Below, piece after piece: positions 396-54,785 of a stretch of 58,356 bases of DNA. Origin of the DNA: a virus. Positions within the stretch are counted from its first letter, which is position 1, and each line of letters begins with the position of its first letter. The translations under genes and the position numbers were made by a program. A model generated the notes under the pieces. That model searched no databases, was not told the DNA's origin, and saw only the letters and a program-made list of their open reading frames with translations. The stretch spans positions 1 to 58,356 of the IMG/VR virus record IMGVR_UViG_3300029563_000007, one strand, 5' to 3'.

Positions 396-400
396 CATAT

Positions 401-472
401 TGCCCCTTAGCCAAGTGGTCAAGGCACAGGATTTTGATTCCTGTATCGTGGGTTCAAATCCCACAGGGGTAG
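401..472 (+). tRNA. tRNA-Gln (anticodon TTG)
   Basis: Hand-folded cloverleaf: acceptor TGCCCCT/AGGGGTA, anticodon stem CAGGA/TCCTG with loop TTTTGAT, T arm GTGGG-TTCAAAT-CCCAC; no encoded CCA. Confidence 0.85.
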
Positions 473-835
473 TTCAAGTGTTTAATTACACTTGTGCCTT
501 TACAGGACTTATTGGTTTACTAGCATTAAGTCCTCCTTTCACCTCATAGCGAGAGCTGTTAAGGACTGTCAGATAGTCCGTGAGGTTTTGCGTATTATAA
601 ATACGCAAATAAAATTAAGTTATACCTATAGCGCAGCAGTTATCTGTATGGATAGACAGCGAGCGAAGCTACTTTCTTTGAGCCCAACTGCACGGGTAGA
701 ATGACATCCAAGCTTTGCCACGACCTGTTATAGGTGTCATAGCCTATACTGCTATTAAGACTAGCATTGTTTTTCAGTATCAACTATCCACCTTAATCGA
801 AACATTTTCACAATGCTAGTCTTTTAAAACGATAT

Positions 836-925
836 GGAGAAGCGGCAACGATTGGCGGTGTTGCGGCAGACTGTAAATCTGTTCCCTTGCGGTAAACATT
901 GTAGGTTCAATTCCTATCTTCTCCA
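836..925 (+). tRNA. tRNA-Tyr (anticodon GTA), long variable arm
   Basis: Acceptor GGAGAAG/CTTCTCC+A, anticodon stem GCAGA/TCTGT with loop CTGTAAA, T arm GTAGG-TTCAATT-CCTAT, long extra arm as in bacterial tRNA-Tyr. Confidence 0.8.
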
Positions 926-929
926 CTTT

Positions 930-1012
930 GCCGATATGGGATAAAGGTATTCCAGTAGCTTGCTAAGCTATCCAACAGAAATGTTGTTCGTGTTCGATTC
1001 ACGATATCGGCG
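930..1012 (+). tRNA. tRNA-Ser (anticodon GCT), long variable arm
   Basis: Acceptor GCCGATA/TATCGGC+G, anticodon stem GTAGC/GCTAT with loop TTGCTAA, extra arm CAACA-GAAA-TGTTG, T arm TCGTG-TTCGATT-CACGA. Confidence 0.8.
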
Positions 1013-1087
1013 TTTTGAAAGCACTTCTTGGGTCTGCGTGCGTAATGTTGTTTGCGGACTTATCCTAGGTTAAGAGGTGTAAGTAAG

Positions 1088-1131
1088 TTGCTATAAGTGG
1101 TGCCGTAAGGTTCGATTCCTTACATAGCAAT
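1088..1131 (+). ncRNA. tRNA-like acceptor/T-arm minihelix A (no D or anticodon arm)
   Basis: TTGCTAT-AAGTGGTGCC-GTAAGG-TTCGATT-CCTTAC-ATAGCAA: 7-bp acceptor-like stem, 10-nt linker, 6-bp stem with canonical T-loop. Confidence 0.5.
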
Positions 1132-2525: not shown

Positions 2526-2754
2526 GAGAATTGTTAATCGTTGGATAAGACGCAAGACAAAGAATCTGACAGAAATACCACTTTTTACGATGGTATTTAA
2601 TTACCGCAAGTATAAAGCAGAAGGCAAGAAAGACAGTTGTATGTTTTATACACACCCAGATATTGCTGATGACAAATTTGTAAAGAGTAAGTTACAAGAA
2701 GTTGTTGACTATATCAGAGATAACTATGATTTGGATATATTTACGAGGATTTGA
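2518..2754 (+). CDS. hypothetical protein
   Basis: In-frame ATG at 2518 (MIERIVNRW...) overlapping the upstream stop; same-strand packed array. Confidence 0.5.
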   Translation: MIERIVNRWIRRKTKNLTEIPLFTMVFNYRKYKAEGKKDSCMFYTHPDIADDKFVKSKLQEVVDYIRDNYDLDIFTRI

Positions 2755-4248: not shown

Positions 4249-4635
4249 ATGAAACAGTTATTTGTAAGTGTGCCTATGAAAGGCAGAACAGAGGAAGAAA
4301 TCAAAGCTAGTATTCAGAAGATGAAAAAAATTGCTGAAATATACGAGGGCGAAGAATTAGAGCTTATCGACAGCTACATTGAGGATAACCCACATAAAGA
4401 CAGTAAAGAAGCTGTGTGGTATTTAGGCGAGAGCCTTAAGAAGCTGGCACAGGCTGATGTATTCATTGGAATATGTGAGAGTTATGATTGGAACGGCTGT
4501 AGCATTGAAAGAGAAACAGCGGAAAAATATGGCATTAAAACATATATGATTCCAGCACGGTATGTAATTGATGATTATAATACACTTTTGAATAGATTGC
4601 ATCCGACTTGCTGTGATGCAATGCTGACATTCTAA
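4249..4635 (+). CDS. DUF4406 / nucleoside 2-deoxyribosyltransferase-like protein
   Basis: ORF track 128 aa; MKQLFVSVPMKGRTEEE...WYLGESLKKLAQADVFIGICESYDWNGCSIERETAEKYGI pattern recalled from that fold; SD AAAGGAG. Confidence 0.45.
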   Translation: MKQLFVSVPMKGRTEEEIKASIQKMKKIAEIYEGEELELIDSYIEDNPHKDSKEAVWYLGESLKKLAQADVFIGICESYDWNGCSIERETAEKYGIKTYMIPARYVIDDYNTLLNRLHPTCCDAMLTF

Positions 4636-4720: not shown

Positions 4721-6463
4721 GTGGAGGTGCTTTTCTTGAATTCTGAATTAAATCAACTGATAGATGATTGCGAAAAATACATATCCCAAAATGGAATAGA
4801 TGAAAATATCATAGAAACCTACTACAACGTGTGCCAGCTTGCCAAGAATGAGGGTGAAATTGACACAATGTTAAAATGTACGGCTAGGACAAAAGAACTC
4901 ATAGAAAAGGCTTGTATGCGCGATATAGGGCTATCTATGTGGGAGATAGAGAAGTTTGTCTTTAACAATAAAAGTTCCTTTGATTCGCTTGATAAATACT
5001 ATGATGTATTACTGCTTGAAGCCCAAAGCAAAATAGTAGATAGTGCATTTATGTATCTTGAAAAGAAAAGAGAACCTAAAGAGCGCTTCTATATGCCACG
5101 CCGCAAACAATTCTTAAGAATGGGGCTAATAGAAGCTTTGCAGGGTATGATTGATGATAAATACGATATATTGTGCGTATCATTGATACCAGGAGCAGGA
5201 AAGACGACTATTGAAAAAATGTTTAATGCTTTAGTAGCTGGTTGGTTTCCTAATGATTTTTGCCTTTTTTACTCCCATTCCGGCGACATTACACGAATGT
5301 ACTATGATGGCGTATACGATATTGTTACAAATGCTGATGAATATGCGTGGAACGAAATCTTTCCTAATTTGACAGTTACAAGCACTAACGCAAAGTTAGA
5401 ACAATTTAATATCGGCAAATATAAGCCATTTCCATCTGTGCAATGTACATCTGTAGGAAGTAAGAATGCCGGTAAAGTTCGTGCAAGTAAGTTTTTACTT
5501 GTGGATGATATGATAGGCGGCATTGAAGAAGCACTTAATCCTATGGTGCTTGATAAGCTATGGGATAAATATGCAGTAGATGCTAGGCAAAGAAAAATCC
5601 AAGATACGGACGGACACAATTGTAAAGAAATACACATTGCTACGCGTTGGAGTGTACATGATGTTATCGGAAGAATACAGAATATGTACGCAGGAAACAA
5701 AAGAGTTAAGACTATTGCCGTACCAGATGTAGACCCAGTAACAGGCGAGAGTAATTTTGATTATGAGTATAGCGGATTCACAAAAGAGTTTTTTGCTGAC
5801 CAACAGCTTTTAATGGATGAAATCTCTTACAGGTGTTTATACAAACAGGAACCTATCGAACGTGAGGGATTACTATTTCCAGATGATAAAATCCGCAGAT
5901 ACCTTAATCTGCCACACGGAGAACCGGAAATTATTACGGCACAATGCGATACAAAGGGAAAAGGTACGGATTATTTCGTATTGCCTGTATTGCAGAAACA
6001 CGGAGAAGACTATTACTGCATTGATTGCGTATGTGACAATACAGCTGATTATGAAGAACAATACAGAAATGCCGCAGGAGTGCTTGTAAATAATAAGGTG
6101 CAGGAATGCGAATTTGAGCGTAATGCCGGCGGCGATAGAGTGGCTATGGAAGTTAATAAGCGTGTTGAGAGCGTTGGGTGGATTTGCAATATTACTGATA
6201 CACCAACAGAAACAAACAAGGAAGCAAGGATATTTCAATGTTCTAACTGGATATTACAACACATTATTTTCAAAGACCCCTCACTTTATAAGCCTAATGA
6301 GCCATACGGAGTGATGATGTCACTATTAAAGCAATATTCAGTATCAGGTAAGAAACAATTAGATGATGTTCCAGATGTTTTCTCAAACTTTGCACTAAGA
6401 ATGACACAAGGTAATAGAACAGCTAAAGTTGAAGCTGCTATAAATCCATTTAGGAGGTATTAA
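4721..6463 (+). CDS. terL: terminase large subunit
   Basis: 580 aa; Walker A IPGAGKTT, Walker B FLLVDDM, ATRW coupling motif, C-terminal nuclease-like half. Start uncertain (GTG 4721, TTG 4736 or ATG 4868) because hairpin AAGCACCT/AGGTGCTT + T-run at 4703-4737 overlaps it. Confidence 0.85.
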   Translation: MEVLFLNSELNQLIDDCEKYISQNGIDENIIETYYNVCQLAKNEGEIDTMLKCTARTKELIEKACMRDIGLSMWEIEKFVFNNKSSFDSLDKYYDVLLLEAQSKIVDSAFMYLEKKREPKERFYMPRRKQFLRMGLIEALQGMIDDKYDILCVSLIPGAGKTTIEKMFNALVAGWFPNDFCLFYSHSGDITRMYYDGVYDIVTNADEYAWNEIFPNLTVTSTNAKLEQFNIGKYKPFPSVQCTSVGSKNAGKVRASKFLLVDDMIGGIEEALNPMVLDKLWDKYAVDARQRKIQDTDGHNCKEIHIATRWSVHDVIGRIQNMYAGNKRVKTIAVPDVDPVTGESNFDYEYSGFTKEFFADQQLLMDEISYRCLYKQEPIEREGLLFPDDKIRRYLNLPHGEPEIITAQCDTKGKGTDYFVLPVLQKHGEDYYCIDCVCDNTADYEEQYRNAAGVLVNNKVQECEFERNAGGDRVAMEVNKRVESVGWICNITDTPTETNKEARIFQCSNWILQHIIFKDPSLYKPNEPYGVMMSLLKQYSVSGKKQLDDVPDVFSNFALRMTQGNRTAKVEAAINPFRRY

Positions 6464-50885: not shown

Positions 50886-51500
50886 ATGCATAAATGGGCT
50901 AAACAGATTATGGAATGTGTCAAGGCAAAAGTTGAAGCAATCGGATTAGATAGCTTTGAGGGGCAGAACCTTGACGATTTAAAGGATTTTACAGAAATAG
51001 CGAAGAATATAGCTTGCTTTGACAAGGATTACAGAATTGTTGAAGCTATGGAAAAGTCAGAAGATAATGAGGATATTATGCGTATGCTTGAACAGTACGA
51101 AGATTATCCGGACAGAAGATTTTACGACCACTACCGCTATGCAGATGGAAGATTTGCCCCTAAAGGTAAAGGAACATACCGCAGAGGATATGAAGAACCA
51201 CCTTATTACCATATGTACCCAGAAAGAGATATGGATAGAGAGTATGGCAGAATGTACTATACAGAGCCTACAAGTACACATACCGCTGAAAGTGGCTATG
51301 ACAGGGCAAAGAGAATGTATACAGAAACTAAAGAAATGCACAAAGCTAATACACCAGAGGATAAGGAGCATAAGATGAAGTCCCTTGACAGCTACACTAA
51401 GGAACTTGCAAGCGACATTACAGGTATGGTTGCCGATATGTCAGCAGAAGAAAAAAACTTACTTAGAACAAAGTTAAGCACTCTTGTATCTAAGATTTGA
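50886..51500 (+). CDS. Tyr/Arg/Glu/Pro-rich protein, unknown function
   Basis: 204 aa; ...YRRGYEEPPYYHMYPERDMDREYGRMYYTEP... Confidence 0.5.
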   Translation: MHKWAKQIMECVKAKVEAIGLDSFEGQNLDDLKDFTEIAKNIACFDKDYRIVEAMEKSEDNEDIMRMLEQYEDYPDRRFYDHYRYADGRFAPKGKGTYRRGYEEPPYYHMYPERDMDREYGRMYYTEPTSTHTAESGYDRAKRMYTETKEMHKANTPEDKEHKMKSLDSYTKELASDITGMVADMSAEEKNLLRTKLSTLVSKI

Positions 51501-51507
51501 TTTTAAG

Positions 51508-51543
51508 GGCTATGGGTAGCAATATTCATAGCCTGTTTTATTT
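51508..51543 (+). terminator. terminator-like hairpin
   Basis: GGCTATG...CATAGCC then TGTTTTATTT. Confidence 0.5.
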
Positions 51544-51559
51544 AGAAAGGGGCATACAG

Positions 51560-51880
51560 ATGATTTTTAACATCAATGGTACAATTTGGCACATACAATA
51601 TAAAAATTCAAATTCAAGTGAATTAAGGCGGTCGGACAACACAATTAGCTTAGGTGTAACTGACAGAAACACGCATACAATATACCTGTCAGACAAATTG
51701 CAGGGATTTATGCAACGCAAAGTGCTTATACACGAAGTATGCCACGCAATCTGTATGTCTTATGATGTGTATTTACCGATTGAGCAGGAAGAAATATTGT
51801 GCGATTTTGTAGCAACTTACGGAGATGAAATATTTGATATTGTTGATATGGTGCTTGGGGCAGTTAGGAGAGTGGGATAA
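51560..51880 (+). CDS. small HExxH putative metallopeptidase
   Basis: SD AAAGGGG then ATG 51560; motif VLIHEVCHAI. Confidence 0.45.
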   Translation: MIFNINGTIWHIQYKNSNSSELRRSDNTISLGVTDRNTHTIYLSDKLQGFMQRKVLIHEVCHAICMSYDVYLPIEQEEILCDFVATYGDEIFDIVDMVLGAVRRVG

Positions 51881-52026
51881 TGAGTATTGATGAGCTATTG
51901 GAAATAATTCAAAGGACTAATCCAACTATGACAAAGGAATTATTGATATATGAGCTTAGTCAATGTCAGTATTCAAGTAAGGCGTTGATACATACAGAAG
52001 AATGCTGTCAAAAAATTTCGAGGTAA
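51880..52026 (+). CDS. hypothetical 48-aa protein
   Basis: ATG overlaps the upstream TAA; MSIDELLEIIQRTNPTMTKELLIYELSQCQYSSKALIHTEECCQKISR. Confidence 0.35.
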   Translation: MSIDELLEIIQRTNPTMTKELLIYELSQCQYSSKALIHTEECCQKISR

Positions 52027-52039
52027 CGCATTCAATACG

Positions 52040-52305
52040 CCCCCAGGTATGGCATTTTGTATTCGCAATTTCGATTTTGACAATTCCCAAAATTTGGTCC
52101 AGATTTCGTTCAAATCCTACTTAAAAATTGGAAAAATTTCTCCACAAATTTTATTGCTAAAAATTTTGATACCCCCGTCATATGCAATTTTGGAATCCAA
52201 AAATCGGTTACGCAGAATTTCAATTTTTGCTCCCGATTTCGTTCAGATTTGCCCTGAAAAATTGATGAAAAACTTCAACAGATTAAAGTGCATTATATAA
52301 ACTTG
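52040..52305. repeat. two degenerate ~132-bp tandem repeats rich in phased A/T tracts
   Basis: Both units start CCCCC(A/G).. (52040, 52172) and share GCAATTT.., GATTTCGTTCA(A/G)AT (52102, 52235) and ..AAAAATTG..AAAAA..TTC. Confidence 0.55.
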
Positions 52306-52424
52306 ACTGGCTGTGGTTCGCGTTTATTTTGGCGTTGTGGCTTTGTGATTTGCCCTGTACGGCGGTTTTATTGTGTCGGTGTAGAACTTATAAGCCTACA
52401 GAACAAAACAGCCTTAAAACGCCT

Positions 52425-52453
52425 TTGAAAGCGTTGTATAAAATGGGTATAAT
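52425..52453 (+). promoter_or_regulatory. near-consensus sigma-70 promoter with no ORF downstream
   Basis: TTGAAA 52425-30, 17-nt spacer, TATAAT 52448-53. Confidence 0.55.
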
Positions 52454-52600
52454 ATACCCTTGAAAGTTGTGGAAGCTGTTGTCAGTTCTGGAGAATTCAA
52501 CAGAACGCACGCCGCTCCAACCGGGTACACTTGTACACCTAAAAAGCGCAAAAGCCTTATATATAAGCATAGCATTATTATATTAATTTTTCAAGGTACG

Positions 52601-52629
52601 CAAAGAAAAGCATATAAAAATATATGCTT
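52601..52629 (-). terminator. rho-independent terminator (minus strand)
   Basis: Minus strand AAGCAUAUA-UUUU-UAUAUGCUU followed by UUCUUUG. Confidence 0.6.
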
Positions 52630-52631
52630 AA

Positions 52632-52673
52632 TGCTTGCGGCTGGAATCGAACCAACCAGAACCCACAGCAAGC
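52632..52673 (-). ncRNA. tRNA-like acceptor/T-arm minihelix B
   Basis: Minus strand GCUUGCU-GUGGGUUCU-GUUGG-UUCGAUU-CCAGC-CGCAAGC-A; 6 of 7 acceptor pairs; no D or anticodon arm. Confidence 0.5.
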
Positions 52674-52674
52674 C

Positions 52675-52700
52675 AAAAAGGGCGCAGATTGTACGCCCTT
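52675..52700 (-). terminator. rho-independent terminator (minus strand) after the 52699 gene
   Basis: Minus strand GGGCG-UACAAUCUG-CGCCC then UUUUU. Confidence 0.6.
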
Positions 52701-52980
52701 AATCATTGAGAAAATTATAAATTTTTTCATTCTGTTTGTTTTCCTTGAACAAATAAAATGCTTCTAGCCTGTTAGGCTTTTTCAATAATTTTTTAACATC
52801 ATTTTCGCTGTCGTGCTCAATCGAGCAGAAAATCATAAATACACAACATTTTATTTTTTTAATCTCTTCGCTGTCAACTCTAGCAAAATCAAAAAAGTTT
52901 TTGATAGCGTTCTTGTATGCTTTTTCACAAGCTGGAATGGTCTTGTATGGTAAGTCTTTTGTATACCATTTTTTATTCAT
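52699..52980 (-). CDS. hypothetical protein
   Basis: 93 aa, minus-strand SD GGAGG. Confidence 0.55.
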   Translation of the reverse strand: MNKKWYTKDLPYKTIPACEKAYKNAIKNFFDFARVDSEEIKKIKCCVFMIFCSIEHDSENDVKKLLKKPNRLEAFYLFKENKQNEKIYNFLND

Positions 52981-53025
52981 TGTTATACCTCCATATTTTC
53001 ATTTTCCCCCTGACATCAGGGTAAA

Positions 53026-53066
53026 AGCAAGCCGGGGAATCGAACCCCGGAAACGCCAGCCTTGCT
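53026..53066 (-). ncRNA. tRNA-like acceptor/T-arm minihelix C
   Basis: Minus strand AGCAAG-GCUGGCGUUU-CCGGGG-UUCGAUU-CCCCGG-CUUGCU; its first two nt are the AG of the upstream UAG stop. Confidence 0.55.
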
Positions 53067-53298
53067 AATTTGCATAATAAAAATCAAAAACTTCTTTTCT
53101 TTCGGCTTGTCGCATTGCAAGAACACGCTCGAAAGCTCTTTTTACTAAAGGGAGAACATTTGCGCCCGATTTAATTGATTTCGCAATAGCAAGCATCTCT
53201 TCCGACGTCTTGTCGTAGATATAGCTAATAGCATTGTCAAAAGTCTCCTCCGAAATTTTTAATTCTTTCAAATCCTGTTGATATGTTTTAAATTCCAT
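53065..53298 (-). CDS. hypothetical protein
   Basis: 77 aa ORF track. Confidence 0.55.
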   Translation of the reverse strand: MEFKTYQQDLKELKISEETFDNAISYIYDKTSEEMLAIAKSIKSGANVLPLVKRAFERVLAMRQAERKEVFDFYYAN

Positions 53299-53322
53299 AA
53301 AATCAACCTTCCTTTCATTTTT

Positions 53323-53499
53323 CTATAAATACAGTTCCATAAATCTTCCACTTTTAGTTTTACTTTTAGTTAATACAACACCAGGGCGGTCAACTTTTAC
53401 ATATTGGGCAACTAATTCTTCAATTACTTCTTTGCTGTAGTATTGTTTCAAAGCTTCTCTTGTGTAGTCTTTTGCTTCTTCTAATATCATCATTTTCAT
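53323..53499 (-). CDS. hypothetical 58-aa protein
   Basis: MKMMILEEAKDYTREALKQYYSKEVIEELVAQYVKVDRPGVVLTKSKTKSGRFMELYL; tightly packed in the minus operon. Confidence 0.4.
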   Translation of the reverse strand: MKMMILEEAKDYTREALKQYYSKEVIEELVAQYVKVDRPGVVLTKSKTKSGRFMELYL

Positions 53500-53515
53500 A
53501 TACTCAACATCCTTT

Positions 53516-53695
53516 CTATGCGTTTGCTTCTGCTCTTAAAATCTCAATGCATTCTTTTTTCGTGTGCTCTCCGTAAAATTTTATAGGCTTATGAAATGCC
53601 TTTGCAAGGGCAAAATTTTCTTGATTTTTTAAAAATAAATCACGGATTTCTAAAAATGTCTTTTTGTGGCTTTCATACTGTTCTTTTTTTGTCAT
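53516..53695 (-). CDS. hypothetical 59-aa protein
   Basis: MTKKEQYESHKKTFLEIRDLFLKNQENFALAKAFHKPIKFYGEHTKKECIEILRAEANA; SD-like GGAUGG upstream. Confidence 0.4.
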   Translation of the reverse strand: MTKKEQYESHKKTFLEIRDLFLKNQENFALAKAFHKPIKFYGEHTKKECIEILRAEANA

Positions 53696-53723
53696 AATAA
53701 TTAACCATCCTTTCTTTTTGCTT

Positions 53724-53782
53724 GTCTCATCAGTGGCAAGGTTGCAACCCTACACCAGACCGCCGGGCGGCGGTTTCGACTA
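53724..53782 (-). ncRNA. hammerhead self-cleaving ribozyme, type II topology (candidate)
   Basis: Minus strand GUC-GAAA-CCGCC(GCCC)GGCGG-UC|UGGUGUAGGGU(UGCA)ACCUUGCCA-CUGAUGA-GAC; all invariant core nucleotides in the canonical order. Confidence 0.7.
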
Positions 53783-53929
53783 TATCTTTATGAACATTTC
53801 CCAAGGTGCTATAATAATACCGCCTTTACAATCGGCGTATATTATTACTTCCCCATTTTTGGTTATTTCGTACTTTTTAAAAGTACATTCTATCTCATTG
53901 CCGTAAATAATCTTGTCGCCTATTTTCAT
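53780..53929 (-). CDS. hypothetical 49-aa protein
   Basis: SD GGAGGG then ATG; MKIGDKIIYGNEIECTFKKYEITKNGEVIIYADCKGGIIIAPWEMFIKI. Confidence 0.4.
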   Translation of the reverse strand: MKIGDKIIYGNEIECTFKKYEITKNGEVIIYADCKGGIIIAPWEMFIKI

Positions 53930-53941
53930 TTTTAACCCTCC

Positions 53942-54322
53942 TTATTCTGTAATCCTTTCAAATATTTCTATTGTTTTGCGTGCGTTTTCCCTCTTCTTTT
54001 CAGCCGTATAACTATGGCGGCGGCTCTTTAATGCCTTTCTTGCTGTCTCTATGCTATTAACTCCCCACGCTGCGGCTTCTCTTAATAACTCAACCTCTTC
54101 TTTTGGTAGCTTAATAGCTCTTAAAGTGTCAGAGTTGATAGAGTAATCATCTTTAATTCCCGGATACAAATCTTGGCAAACTGGAATATATTCATCACTC
54201 CCCATATTCTCGCCGATATTCCATACATAGAAACCAAATGGAATCTTTTCAACTATTTTATAAATATCTGTTTTACCTAATGTTTCACTTGTAATTGTGT
54301 CGCCCTTAACTTCAAATCTCAT
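53942..54322 (-). CDS. hypothetical protein, first gene of the minus-strand operon
   Basis: 126 aa ORF track. Confidence 0.55.
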   Translation of the reverse strand: MRFEVKGDTITSETLGKTDIYKIVEKIPFGFYVWNIGENMGSDEYIPVCQDLYPGIKDDYSINSDTLRAIKLPKEEVELLREAAAWGVNSIETARKALKSRRHSYTAEKKRENARKTIEIFERITE

Positions 54323-54431
54323 ATTCTTGCACCATCTCGCCGATTGTGATATAATCGGCTTACCTTTCTTTTTTTGATTGGTGGCGGTTCGTTCTTGGTA
54401 GGAGTGACCGCCTTATTTATTTTGTAGCTTA

Positions 54432-54475
54432 ATAATAACACCTTTTAAGGTGTATGTCAACACCTTTTAAGATGT
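54432..54475 (-). promoter_or_regulatory. leftward promoter with palindromic operators
   Basis: Minus strand TTGACA (rc 54455-60), 17 nt, TATTAT (rc 54432-37). ACACCTTTTAAGGTGT (54438-53) fills the spacer; near-copy ACACCTTTTAAGATGT at 54460-75. Confidence 0.6.
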
Positions 54476-54497
54476 TTTTAAATTTTGTTTTTAAGTG

Positions 54498-54526
54498 TTG
54501 CAAAACTGCAATATTTTATATATAAT
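54498..54526 (+). promoter_or_regulatory. rightward promoter of the HTH gene
   Basis: TTGCAA 54498-503, 17 nt, TATAAT 54521-26. Confidence 0.55.
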
Positions 54527-54557
54527 AGTAAAAACAAAACAGAAAGGAGCTTGCGAA

Positions 54558-54785
54558 ATGCTTACATATAAAATAGATGTATTAAAAGAGCTGGCACAGC
54601 GTGGCTACACCGCAAACAGAATGAGAAAAGAGAAGATATTGAGTGAAAGCACGATGCAGAATTTAAGGAATAAAAGCGATATTAATACAAAGACATTAAA
54701 TACATTATGTATTATTTTAAGATGTCAGCCAAGCGATATAATAGAGATAGTACCAACCGATGACGAGAAGATAAAATATTTTTAA
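54558..54785 (+). CDS. Cro/C1-type HTH regulator (HTH_26/YozG-like)
   Basis: MLTYKIDVLKELAQRGYTANRMRKEKILSESTMQNLRNKSDINTKTLNTLCIILRCQPSDIIEI. Confidence 0.65.
   Translation: MLTYKIDVLKELAQRGYTANRMRKEKILSESTMQNLRNKSDINTKTLNTLCIILRCQPSDIIEIVPTDDEKIKYF

Follow-up and report, generated by a model that had tools for sequence, protein, structure and literature searches.

Why should a phage operon of six very small genes be interrupted by a ribozyme and by structures that resemble pieces of tRNA? The question is raised by a leftward operon in a viral sequence of 58,356 nucleotides (the window), for which an earlier note had proposed that the RNA elements cut a polycistronic transcript into pieces with structured ends. 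The window was compared with over 90 related loci from phages and prophages of Lachnospiraceae; Lachnospira intestinalis CLA-AA-H89B is a cultured lysogen. The locus is best described as a putative accessory operon of a temperate Lachnospiraceae phage, which would be transcribed as one long RNA carrying two kinds of cutting signal.

Transcription of the operon would start at a sigma-70-type promoter on the minus strand (54432..54460), in which a sequence check placed the −35 hexamer TTGACA at 54460-54455 and the extended −10 element TGtTATTAT at 54437-54432, with a spacer of 17 nt and 11 of 12 consensus matches. The A-rich stretch upstream of this promoter is like that of strong Staphylococcus phage promoters. 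The spacer is occupied by operator O1, ACACCTTTTAAGGTGT (54438..54453), a perfect 7+2+7 palindrome. A pattern search located a second operator, O2 (54460..54475), an imperfect 16-bp palindrome (one mismatch) directly adjoining the −35 hexamer and lying 22 bp from O1, centre to centre; the same search found no further copy in the 58 kb (0.13 expected by chance). The earlier note had placed the palindrome exactly between the two promoter elements, and the coordinate check agreed with it.

The gene divergent from the operon (54558..54785, plus strand) encodes a 75-aa HTH_26 (Cro/C1-type) regulator (Pfam E = 6e-12) and is preceded by a promoter-like site found in the promoter scan (TTGCAA, 17 nt, TATAAT; 54498..54526, plus strand). 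An HTH gene beside dyad sites that overlap a promoter is the arrangement of a Cro/CI-type repressor-operator pair. Among 43 relatives, three HTH_26 variants and several non-HTH_26 regulators (the latter called RHH-like by eye) were present, with a different spacer sequence for each type; the same regulator was accompanied by the same palindrome, and regulator type and palindrome changed together. This match between each regulator type and a spacer palindrome of its own supports a specific pairing of the predicted 54558 protein with the promoter palindromes, for which the earlier note had already put this protein forward. Cro/CI-type immunity cassettes are alike in having a small HTH protein divergent from a promoter with two dyad operators about two helical turns apart, and in the exchange of modules between related phages. 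They differ in that the candidate roles of the regulator here would be those of a lysogeny repressor, a Cro-like protein, or a dedicated switch for an accessory operon.

The leader holds two hairpins on the minus strand, GGCGGU/ACCGCC (54383..54412) and GCCGAUU/AAUCGGC (54339..54359), both of which are present in the minimum-energy structure (z = −4.2). In relatives the first stem is GCCUGUCG/CGACAGGC or GCUCAUCG/CGAUGAGC and the second is GGGAAUU/AAUUCCC, with compensatory changes in 7 of 16 leader pairs; fold and compensatory changes together confirm the two-hairpin leader described earlier. Six reading frames follow on the minus strand, with the lengths first reported for them: ORF1 (126 aa; 53942..54322), ORF2 (49 aa; 53780..53929), ORF3 (59 aa; 53516..53695), ORF4 (58 aa; 53323..53499), ORF5 (77 aa; 53065..53298), and, from the ORF list, ORF6 (93 aa; 52699..52980). 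ORF1 is the conserved gene of the operon and the first gene in the closer relatives; none of its 369 homologs in a large protein search carried a functional name or a Pfam domain. Structure prediction had been asked for on the small proteins, and an AlphaFold2 model of ORF1 (pLDDT 84) had no PDB fold neighbour with E < 1. ORF2 had five homologs in related loci (87-93% identity), ORF4 had no relatives in IMG/VR, and ORF6 had no match among PDB sequences. The claim that the six cistrons belong to no recognisable family was borne out by scans of Pfam, PHROGs, and NCBIfam, in which none had a significant match and the listed rows were far below curated cut-offs. A search of GenBank phages with the stretch from ORF6 to minihelix B returned no match, and with the full 3 kb as query the only matches were to the regulator gene of two uncultured phages and, via promoter similarity, to Staphylococcus phages. 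No RNA ligase, RtcB, or CCA-adding enzyme was found among the approximately 30 non-structural window ORFs scanned, the structural region and several small ORFs lying outside that scan.

The first of the intergenic RNA elements follows ORF2. It was matched by the Rfam type II hammerhead model (Hammerhead_II, RF02276; 53717..53784, minus strand) at 31.3 bits (E = 7.7e-4), below the gathering score of 37; sister hammerheads of a second subtype, found in the same operons of relatives, scored 47-69 bits and pass that threshold. All parts of the catalytic core were present (CUGANGA, GAAA, the A15.1-U16.1 pair, and an NUH cleavage triplet), as CUGAUGA at 53733-53727, CGAAAC at 53778-53773, and GUC at 53760-53758, which puts the predicted cut between C53758 and U53757. 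The minimum-energy fold is a three-way junction in which loops close stems I and III, whereas stem II (53780-53778 with 53726-53724) is open. Stems I and III were 100% paired in 20 relatives, with compensatory changes. A pseudoknot (UUGC/GCAA, 53747-53744 with 53721-53718) joins loop I to the 3′ tail; its 4 bp equal the minimum that the published definition sets for pairing of loop I with the bases right after stem II (PMC3088659), and its counterparts in relatives have 5-6 bp and covary. Both the sub-gathering score and the pseudoknot of only 4 bp count against the window element. Core, stems, pseudoknot, and covariation in relatives confirmed the hammerhead that had been reported after cistron 2, and on structural grounds we file it as a probable divergent member of type II. 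An Rfam scan for other ribozyme classes found none in the window or in 17 relatives.

The second kind of element, which we call a minihelix, consists of an acceptor stem and a T-arm without anticodon arm or D-arm. Minihelix C (53026..53066, minus strand) is made up of a 6-bp acceptor-like stem, a 10-nt GG-containing linker, a 6-bp T-stem, and the loop UUCGAUU; minihelix B (52633..52673, minus strand) was identified by model match and fold; minihelix A (1089..1129, plus strand) belongs to a rightward transcription unit, where 4 nt separate it from the int-alpA RNA downstream (1134-1199). These were the sole three model matches in the window. As in tRNA, the two stems stack as 6 + 6 = 12 bp, the 3′ acceptor strand following the T-stem with no intervening base, and the linker between acceptor strand and T-stem is unpaired, 6-13 nt long across copies, and contains GG in 52 of 57 distinct copies. 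The core GGTTCGATTCC occurred exactly in A, B, and C, with one near-match in a real tRNA of the window (0.37 expected); it is nearly invariant across minihelix copies, and the consensus GGTTCRANYCC fits 52 of the 57. The T-arm consensus and the 12-bp acceptor/T stack of the window minihelices are the features that define t-element-type structures. By comparison of model and covariation, minihelix C after cistron 5 and minihelix B after cistron 6 stood as first described.

The covariation of the minihelices was examined in the same 57 distinct copies. MAFFT set the 5′ strands of the subtypes out of register, and the model was therefore built from copies of equal length and the matches realigned. 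Pairing was maintained in 97.7% of cells, with double changes in 10 of the 12 pairs; since the covariation is largely between a few subtypes, the independent events are fewer than these cell counts suggest. None of 500 shuffles matched the observed covariation, and sliding the partners lowered pairing to 26-53%. The sequences of the acceptor stems vary freely between subtypes. G-U pairs were formed on the sense strand only, and all 100 of 100 minihelix matches in the window and loci L001-L085 lay on the sense strand of their own operon; the real tRNAs of the same sequences gave no score against the model. ARAGORN called only Gln, Tyr, and Ser tRNAs in the window (400-1013) and none of the minihelices, and a permissive Rfam scan (52300-54600, 1-1300, and 51800-52650) gave only weak, non-significant minihelix matches to mascRNA, the tmRNA T-arm, and Plastid-ycf2. 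A role as functional tRNA was ruled out, the elements having no cloverleaf and no match to the Rfam tRNA model. An encoded CCA was found in 0 of 63 unique minihelices and 0 of 3 phage tRNAs; CCA-less precursors are, reportedly from work by Pellegrini in 2003, the RNase Z substrate class in Bacillus. Gene callers have laid false CDSs over such elements, for example in GenBank PP511791.1.

Both kinds of element are tied to stop codons. Stem II of the hammerhead begins at the G of the ORF2 TAG, and minihelix C begins at the AG of the ORF5 TAG, as expected from the earlier claim that two RNA elements start inside the stop codon of the upstream gene; the hairpin T1 begins inside the ORF6 TAA. Across loci, the hammerhead starts at the last base of the stop codon or one base after it in 30 of 37 unique junctions, and the minihelix within −4 to +5 of the stop codon in 38 of 74. 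A small hairpin, CCCUG-AUGU-CAGGG (53008..53021, minus strand), is found 4 nt past minihelix C, where it is proposed to cap the 5′ end of the ORF6 message. Such a hairpin was present past the internal minihelix in 28 of 32 unique relatives, in 23 different sequences (stem plus loop), starting at +2 to +6 and at +4 or +5 in 22 of the 28. Its MAFFT alignment was structurally inconsistent, so each sequence was folded against its shuffles in place of pair counting; mean folding energy was −5.0 kcal/mol versus −1.2 kcal/mol for the shuffles. Minihelix B is flanked by hairpins (z = −5.4) that agree with the terminators first described on either side of it, in so far as both are terminator-like and carry a U-tract: T1 (52674..52700, minus strand) was called by the terminator scan and ends 1 nt before the minihelix, and the AT-rich T2 (52601..52629, minus strand) was recognised by its fold, the scan having missed it because it has only 2 G-C pairs. 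Located behind a terminator-like hairpin, minihelix B may seldom be transcribed.

The two kinds of element replace each other at the same junctions. Behind the ORF5 family stands a minihelix in the window, L094, and L100, a hammerhead in L096-L099, and no element in L093 and L095. Members of the ORF3 family come after a minihelix and its hairpin in 16 relatives, but in the window ORF3 comes after the hammerhead. In most relatives the slot of minihelix A is filled by a real tRNA, with the distance to the int-alpA RNA fixed at 4 nt. The comparison of loci thus established the interchangeability of these elements along with their structures, covariation, and positions. The exchange of hammerhead and minihelix suggests that both would cut the transcript into single-gene messages with protected ends.

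We give a probability of roughly 60% to RNA punctuation, in which the hammerhead cuts itself, the minihelices recruit tRNA enzymes, and the cistrons receive hairpin-capped ends. This reading, as put forward in the earlier note, is supported by the covariation, the locking to stop codons, the substitution at orthologous junctions, the downstream hairpin, and the minihelix that takes the place of a real tRNA before the int-alpA RNA. The steps would be as follows: transcription proceeds from the near-consensus promoter, which the HTH_26 protein most likely represses by binding both palindromes. The hammerhead, with its stem II in the ORF2 stop codon, would cut itself 22 nt further on, leaving the ORF1-ORF2 message with a 3′ end formed by the stem III hairpin and a cyclic phosphate, and the message downstream with a 5′ end flush with the stem I hairpin. 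Past ORF5 and ORF6, host tRNA-maturation enzymes would do the cutting, most likely RNase Z or RNase P recruited by the minihelix, whose 12 bp, full set of invariant T-loop bases, and D-loop-like GG linker would form the surface by which RNase Z recognises its 3′ side and RNase P its 5′ side. A cut right past the minihelix would cap the upstream message with it, and the downstream message would begin 2-3 nt before the small hairpin, near enough to block 5′-end-dependent decay in a Firmicute. The cutting of the transcript, the identity of the enzyme acting at the minihelices, and a purpose of stability set cistron by cistron are what we infer. Two further points count against RNA punctuation. 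Were RNase P to cut exactly at the 5′ border of minihelix C, the ORF5 stop codon would lose two bases and a non-stop message would result. Punctuation is also, to judge from the relatives, dispensable: 8 of 80 related loci have no model-passing element, some junctions are bare, and chimeric minihelices that cannot fold occur in phage contigs.

Stable GC-rich stacks of 12 bp would block 3′ exonucleases, and the minihelices might act by structure only, with no endonuclease, as such barriers, as terminators that are weak or attenuate, or as pause sites, and so adjust how much transcription and decay pass between cistrons. The T-arm of minihelix C together with CUUGCUUUUA scored as terminator-like in the scan, and minihelix B sits between two terminator-like hairpins. 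However, a plain hairpin has no need of an invariant T-loop, a GG linker, or exactly 12 pairs, all of which are kept across subtypes, and in minihelix B and other subtypes the helix is not followed by a U-tract. That a minihelix and a self-cleaving ribozyme swap at one junction, and that a minihelix replaces a real tRNA upstream of int-alpA, would also be left unexplained, and we consider this account unlikely.

The released minihelix could instead be the functional product, a stable mimic of an acceptor end that serves as decoy or sponge for host factors, with the separation of cistrons as a side effect. The conserved features are tRNA-specific, as many as three copies lie in one operon behind a near-consensus promoter, and minihelix B has no downstream cistron to serve; plant t-elements, once released, are stable and are given non-templated C and A residues (PMC1920247). 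The acceptor stems, however, differ so freely between subtypes that no specific minihelix identity is kept, hammerheads that release no such RNA take the place of minihelices at the same junction, and both the tight link to stop codons and the capping hairpin downstream speak for a role in the mRNAs. We hold a decoy function to be quite unlikely, and we are just as doubtful of a broader version, in which excised minihelices would receive CCA and accumulate as acceptor-end mimics that soak up host factors (e.g. CCA-modifying defence toxins), their cores would also join cassettes, and the tRNA pathway would be a drop-in for the ribozyme.

It is less probable still that the minihelices are decayed remnants of phage tRNAs, with no function at the RNA level, that spread as microhomology for cassette recombination. 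The phage does have a tRNA cluster, the gene content between elements is highly mosaic, and in L009 and L038 chimeric minihelices are joined inside GGTTCGATTCC with the intervening genes deleted; recombination at the minihelix core may be real but secondary. Against decay stand the compensatory changes and sense-strand G-U pairs, which show selection on an RNA helix, the constant geometry without intermediates that retain a partial D-arm or anticodon arm, the sense-strand orientation of all copies, and the co-occurrence of the downstream hairpin. Integrases often target the 3′ ends of tRNAs, attP commonly holds a T-arm and 3′ acceptor strand, and a tyrosine integrase and excisionase are encoded 5-6 kb away, but attachment or recombination sites are hardly credible here, with three different minihelices per genome that each have a 5′ acceptor strand att does not need and that lie between genes at stop codons, and the idea was rejected on the evidence of the Lachnospira intestinalis prophage, where the operon lies inside, with phage sequence on both flanks.

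RNA punctuation has precedents. The closest known hammerheads include one from Clostridium scindens, which we take to be a member of the Lachnospiraceae. In that study, clustered prophage hammerheads, the C. scindens example among them, cut polycistronic RNAs of about 2 kb in vitro, and it was proposed that long phage transcripts are cut into gene-length mRNAs (Perreault 2011; PMC3088659). Hammerhead punctuation of prophage operons is thus already published, in 2011. The hammerheads are alike in architecture, with closed stems I and III, an open stem II, and a pseudoknot from loop I to the 3′ tail, and in flanking single genes or short blocks of varying identity in prophages. The window element differs as a subtype below the Rfam cut-off, and the 2011 paper reports no tRNA-like alternative punctuation, no start of stem II in a stop codon, and no logic of hairpin-capped ends.

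For the minihelices, the nearest likeness is to plant mitochondrial t-elements, incomplete tRNA-like structures with GGTTCRANYCC at mRNA ends, cleaved 5′ by RNase P and 3′ by RNase Z, some of them overlapping the end of a reading frame (Forner 2007; PMC1920247). The incomplete tRNA shape and T-loop motif are shared. The t-elements differ in being organellar and in having no repeated operon punctuation, ribozyme partner, or regular downstream capping hairpin; they are also cleaved, whereas the phage minihelices are described here from sequence. Animal mitochondrial tRNAs between cistrons, according to Ojala, Montoya and Attardi in 1981, are said to mark RNase P and RNase Z cuts; those are full functional tRNAs, whereas the phage minihelices have no anticodon arm or D-arm and cannot decode, and only some junctions are punctuated. 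In the mascRNA of MALAT1 and the MEN-beta element (Rfam RF01684), a tRNA-like structure lies in a long transcript, and cuts by RNase P and RNase Z define the ends of the flanking RNA. Those are eukaryotic nuclear lncRNAs with a cloverleaf-like fold, unlike the minihelices, and the mascRNA match was non-significant (17.9 bits, E = 2.6). The tRNA-like domain of tmRNA has an acceptor stem stacked on a T-arm and a D-loop-like strand, without D-stem or anticodon arm; tmRNA also carries the alanine identity pair G3-U70, a CCA that is either encoded or added, and a long insert containing the tag reading frame. The minihelices have neither the G3-U70 pair, the CCA, nor the tag insert, and the Rfam tmRNA match covered the T-arm only (15.4 bits). 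In the literature searched, no description of minihelix punctuation in phages or bacteria was found.

To our knowledge, hammerheads in bacteria and phages have been on record since 2011 with their purpose still unproven. Since a minihelix, presumably a substrate of tRNA nucleases, replaces a hammerhead at the same junction, the operon provides independent natural evidence that cutting between cistrons is a selected function; the function selected in these hammerheads would then be cutting, rather than circularisation, splicing, or ligand regulation. The rule that hairpins flank the predicted cut on both sides is precise, and the elements could serve as compact, host-powered insulators for synthetic Firmicute operons. 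The tRNA-style punctuation that we know of has so far been confined to organelles and a few eukaryotic and archaeal RNAs; the analysis points to its presence in a phage of a common gut bacterium.

Nearly all genes in the window were oriented rightward, including those for the large terminase, SSB, RecT, a G39P-type helicase loader, excisionase, and tyrosine integrase; the operon of six small genes studied here (about 52601-54475, minus strand) was the sole leftward transcription unit. A search based on ORF1, the first gene of this operon, recovered 80 loci on IMG/VR contigs, many of 55-60 kb, along with prophages in Lachnospira intestinalis (a cultured lysogen, CLA-AA-H89B), Clostridium sp. 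CAG:510, and other Lachnospiraceae/Clostridiales assemblies. Based on this gene content and these relatives, the window is, as judged from sequence, a temperate phage of gut Lachnospiraceae. Its rightward lysogeny-side block ended with a gene for an ImmA/IrrE-type M78 metallopeptidase (51497-51880, plus strand); no obvious ImmR-type repressor partner was located next to it, the closest HTH gene being the divergent regulator at 54558. A region of about 570 bp (52030-52600) held no convincing ORF on either strand and was conserved among relatives at the nucleotide level, with indels. It opened with a promoter-like site (TTGAAA-17 nt-TATGCT; 52594-52566, minus strand), contained GATTTCGTTCARAT twice (at 52102 and 52235), and had no match in Rfam; a non-coding RNA, an origin, and a regulatory region are all possible identities.

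Everything that the earlier note described for the operon, from promoter to terminators, was found in the positions assigned to it. The type II hammerhead between ORF2 and ORF3 (53784-53717, minus strand) had a full catalytic core, the three-way-junction fold, and a pseudoknot in which loop I forms 4 bp with the 3' tail. Its covariance model identified a single window copy and 58 copies in the 85 related loci, all on the operon strand; among relatives, stems I and III showed 100% pairing with compensatory changes, and covariation extended to the pseudoknot. The Rfam type II model scored one subtype in the relatives at 47-69 bits and the window subtype at 31.3, below the cut-off of 37. In one related locus (L070, 4380-4445), the hammerhead carried G12 -> A (CAAAAC versus CGAAAC), a change that abolishes catalysis; this is likely a dead copy, and elements of this kind would thus be able to decay. 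The same ORF1 operon was present in Dulem virus 39 (GenBank PP511791.1), a deposited lemur-gut phage, with two hammerheads (4307-4372 and 4789-4857, plus strand) and zero minihelices; a third hammerhead (2588-2653, minus strand) was located in the operon of opposite orientation, and a hypothetical CDS in the record (4359-4448) overlapped the 3' end of one hammerhead.

The minihelices, tRNA-like RNAs composed of an acceptor stem and a T-arm, were located after ORF5 (minihelix C, 53066-53026) and ORF6 (minihelix B, 52673-52633), both on the minus strand. Each folded as predicted, and two terminator-like hairpins with U-tracts did flank minihelix B (z = -5.4 over the whole stretch). In geometry the minihelices matched the acceptor/T-arm half of a tRNA, with 6 + 6 stacked pairs, a G-C closed UUCGAUU loop that retained every invariant T-loop position, and an unpaired linker, mostly of 8-10 nt, with a D-loop-like GG in 52 of 57 copies. 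No anticodon arm or D-stem was present, and none of 63 unique copies encoded CCA. A covariance model built on 12 equal-length copies matched the window at three sites and no others (E about 1e-11 to 1e-16). Over the window and 85 related loci it had 100 matches, all on the operon sense strand, and it scored none of the numerous genuine tRNAs present there. Across the 57 distinct copies, which included at least six acceptor stems and at least five T-stems, 97.7% of cells were paired and 10 of 12 pairs showed two-sided changes. The observed covariation was reached by 0 of 500 shuffles, and sliding the 3' partners lowered pairing to 26-53%. The frequent G-U pairs suggest that the helix forms in RNA of the sense strand.

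Use of the elements varied across the 80 loci: hammerheads were found in 38, minihelices in 58, both in 24, and in 8 none that passed the models. No operon contained more than four elements, and the gene content between them was highly mosaic. Overlap with stop codons, another point raised earlier, was borne out: stem II of the hammerhead started from the G of the ORF2 TAG and minihelix C from the AG of the ORF5 TAG, and the first terminator hairpin likewise began within the ORF6 TAA. Of 37 unique hammerhead junctions, 30 had stem II starting at the last stop-codon base or one base later. The stop codon was at -4 to +5 of the minihelix in 38 of 74 unique junctions; most of the others were terminal (B-type) minihelices, which immediately follow a terminator-like hairpin. 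Internal minihelices were followed by 3-5 unpaired bases, a small hairpin, an A-rich spacer, and a Shine-Dalgarno sequence in 28 of 32 unique sequences, the hairpin occurring as 23 different sequences (stem plus loop) with a mean energy of -5.0 kcal/mol, versus -1.2 in shuffles. After the ORF5 family came a minihelix in the window and two related loci (L094, L100), a hammerhead in four (L096-L099), and nothing in two (L093, L095); the ORF3 family was preceded by minihelix and hairpin in 16 relatives and by the hammerhead in the window. Compared locus by locus, minihelix and hammerhead each take the other's place.

Self-cleavage of the hammerhead, predicted between C53758 and U53757, would leave the upstream message with the stem III hairpin as its 3' end and start the downstream message flush with the stem I hairpin. 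The minihelix and its hairpin would produce the same layout if cut just 3' of the minihelix, and because of this shared layout we interpret the two elements as punctuation by which every piece would receive structured 3' and 5' ends; all of the cleavage steps at the minihelix we infer. In Bacillus, RNase Z cuts CCA-less tRNA precursors just 3' of the tRNA. Acceptor/T-arm minihelices are also said, from work of McClain, Guerrier-Takada and Altman in 1987, to be usable as substrates by RNase P, and a cut on the 5' side is possible. At B-type minihelices such a cut would create an upstream message ending in a hairpin and U-tract; at minihelix C it would damage the ORF5 stop codon, an argument for the 3' cut as the one that matters at this site. 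Given 5'-end-dependent decay by RNase J in a Firmicute, the structured ends would determine how long the message of each cistron lasts.

The third minihelix of the window (A, 1089-1129, plus strand) was separated by 4 nt from the int-alpA RNA that follows it (Rfam RF02996, 53.8 bits; through 1199). In most relatives its slot was occupied by a real tRNA with the same N-TTA-CAACAAAC junction and, because slot and junction are shared, the 5' end of int-alpA would probably be made by tRNA 3' processing. None of the three phage tRNA genes (Gln, Tyr, and Ser; 400-1013, plus strand) encoded CCA; Tyr and Ser were spaced by 2 nt, and Gln and Tyr by a gap of 360 nt.

Minihelices with a purely structural role, as stabilisers or attenuators, would leave unexplained both their tRNA-specific conservation and their exchange with hammerheads. 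Release as decoys, a less probable role, is opposed by acceptor stems that vary freely and, again, by replacement with hammerheads. Chimeric minihelices were observed in two related loci (L009, about 4805-4850; L038, about 4828-4875), where two subtypes, one supplying the 5' half and the other the 3' half, were fused inside GGTTCGATTCC with loss of the intervening genes. To judge from these junctions, they show deletions mediated by the conserved T-loop core as recombination microhomology, and such recombination may have helped cassette shuffling. They favor minihelices as tRNA remnants serving solely as recombination linkers, a role that is contradicted by the covariation. An att-site role was excluded, the operon being internal within a prophage.

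The leftward promoter matched the consensus at 11 of 12 positions, with an extended -10, and its 17-nt spacer was indeed occupied by a 7+2+7 palindrome (54438-54453). A second copy with one mismatch (54460-54475) was located 22 bp from the first, abutting the -35 hexamer; a pattern search detected no further copies of either elsewhere in the 58 kb. Among relatives, the promoter-operator-regulator block was swapped modularly and the leader and ORF1 were constant. Three diverged HTH_26 proteins paired with ACACCTTAAAAGGTGT, CACTAATATTAGTG, and TAAACCGTTTTAGGTTTA, respectively, and regulators not homologous to HTH_26 (RHH-like by eye only) with still other sequences; identical regulators always accompanied identical palindromes in the relatives compared. 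This joint change of regulator type and palindrome provides good comparative support for the predicted binding of the 54558 protein (54558-54785, plus strand) to the operator at 54438-54475. The promoter and its A-rich upstream region (54416-54499) shared 77-79% identity over about 84 nt with intergenic promoters of Staphylococcus Kayvirus, of the form AAAAGGTGTTGACA-17 nt-TGTTATTATTAAG and missing the palindrome; this likeness probably arose as both converged on a strong Firmicute promoter.

The two hairpins proposed for the leader formed its minimum-energy fold (z = -4.2). In 14 relatives, two-sided changes kept pairing at 7 of 16 predicted pairs, as where GGCGGUUG/CAACCGCC became GCCUGUCG/CGACAGGC. 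An upstream ORF of seven codons (AUGGUGCAAGAAUAUGAGAUUUGA; 54312-54335, minus strand), conserved among relatives, overlapped the ORF1 start out of frame, and the best Shine-Dalgarno-like sequence, GAAAGG, was upstream of leader hairpin 2; translational control of ORF1 is thus a possibility. All six ORFs were present as described, several with visible Shine-Dalgarno sequences, and had no significant match in Pfam, PHROGs, or NCBIfam, in agreement with the earlier view that they belong to no recognisable family. None of 369 ORF1 homologs had a functional name or domain. The confident AlphaFold2 model of ORF1, with a beta-rich N-terminal half followed by three C-terminal helices, had no neighbour in the PDB; anti-defence or host-takeover roles for these proteins are guesses.

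As far as the hammerheads go, the finding is not new: Perreault et al. 2011 (PMC3088659) described this hammerhead type and pseudoknot clustered around single genes in prophages, one of them in Clostridium scindens, observed cleavage in vitro, and proposed cutting of long phage transcripts into mRNAs of gene length. We found no phage or bacterial description of minihelix-type elements in the literature searched and no Rfam family for them. Plant mitochondrial t-elements (PMC1920247) are defined by the same T-loop motif that the minihelices carry, and their borders fall at mRNA ends that RNase P and RNase Z generate; we liken the minihelices to them in working, with cleavage at the minihelix putative. 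Mitochondrial tRNA punctuation and mascRNA are alike more loosely. The main value of the finding is in the exchange of minihelix and hammerhead, which is natural evidence on the purpose of phage hammerheads.
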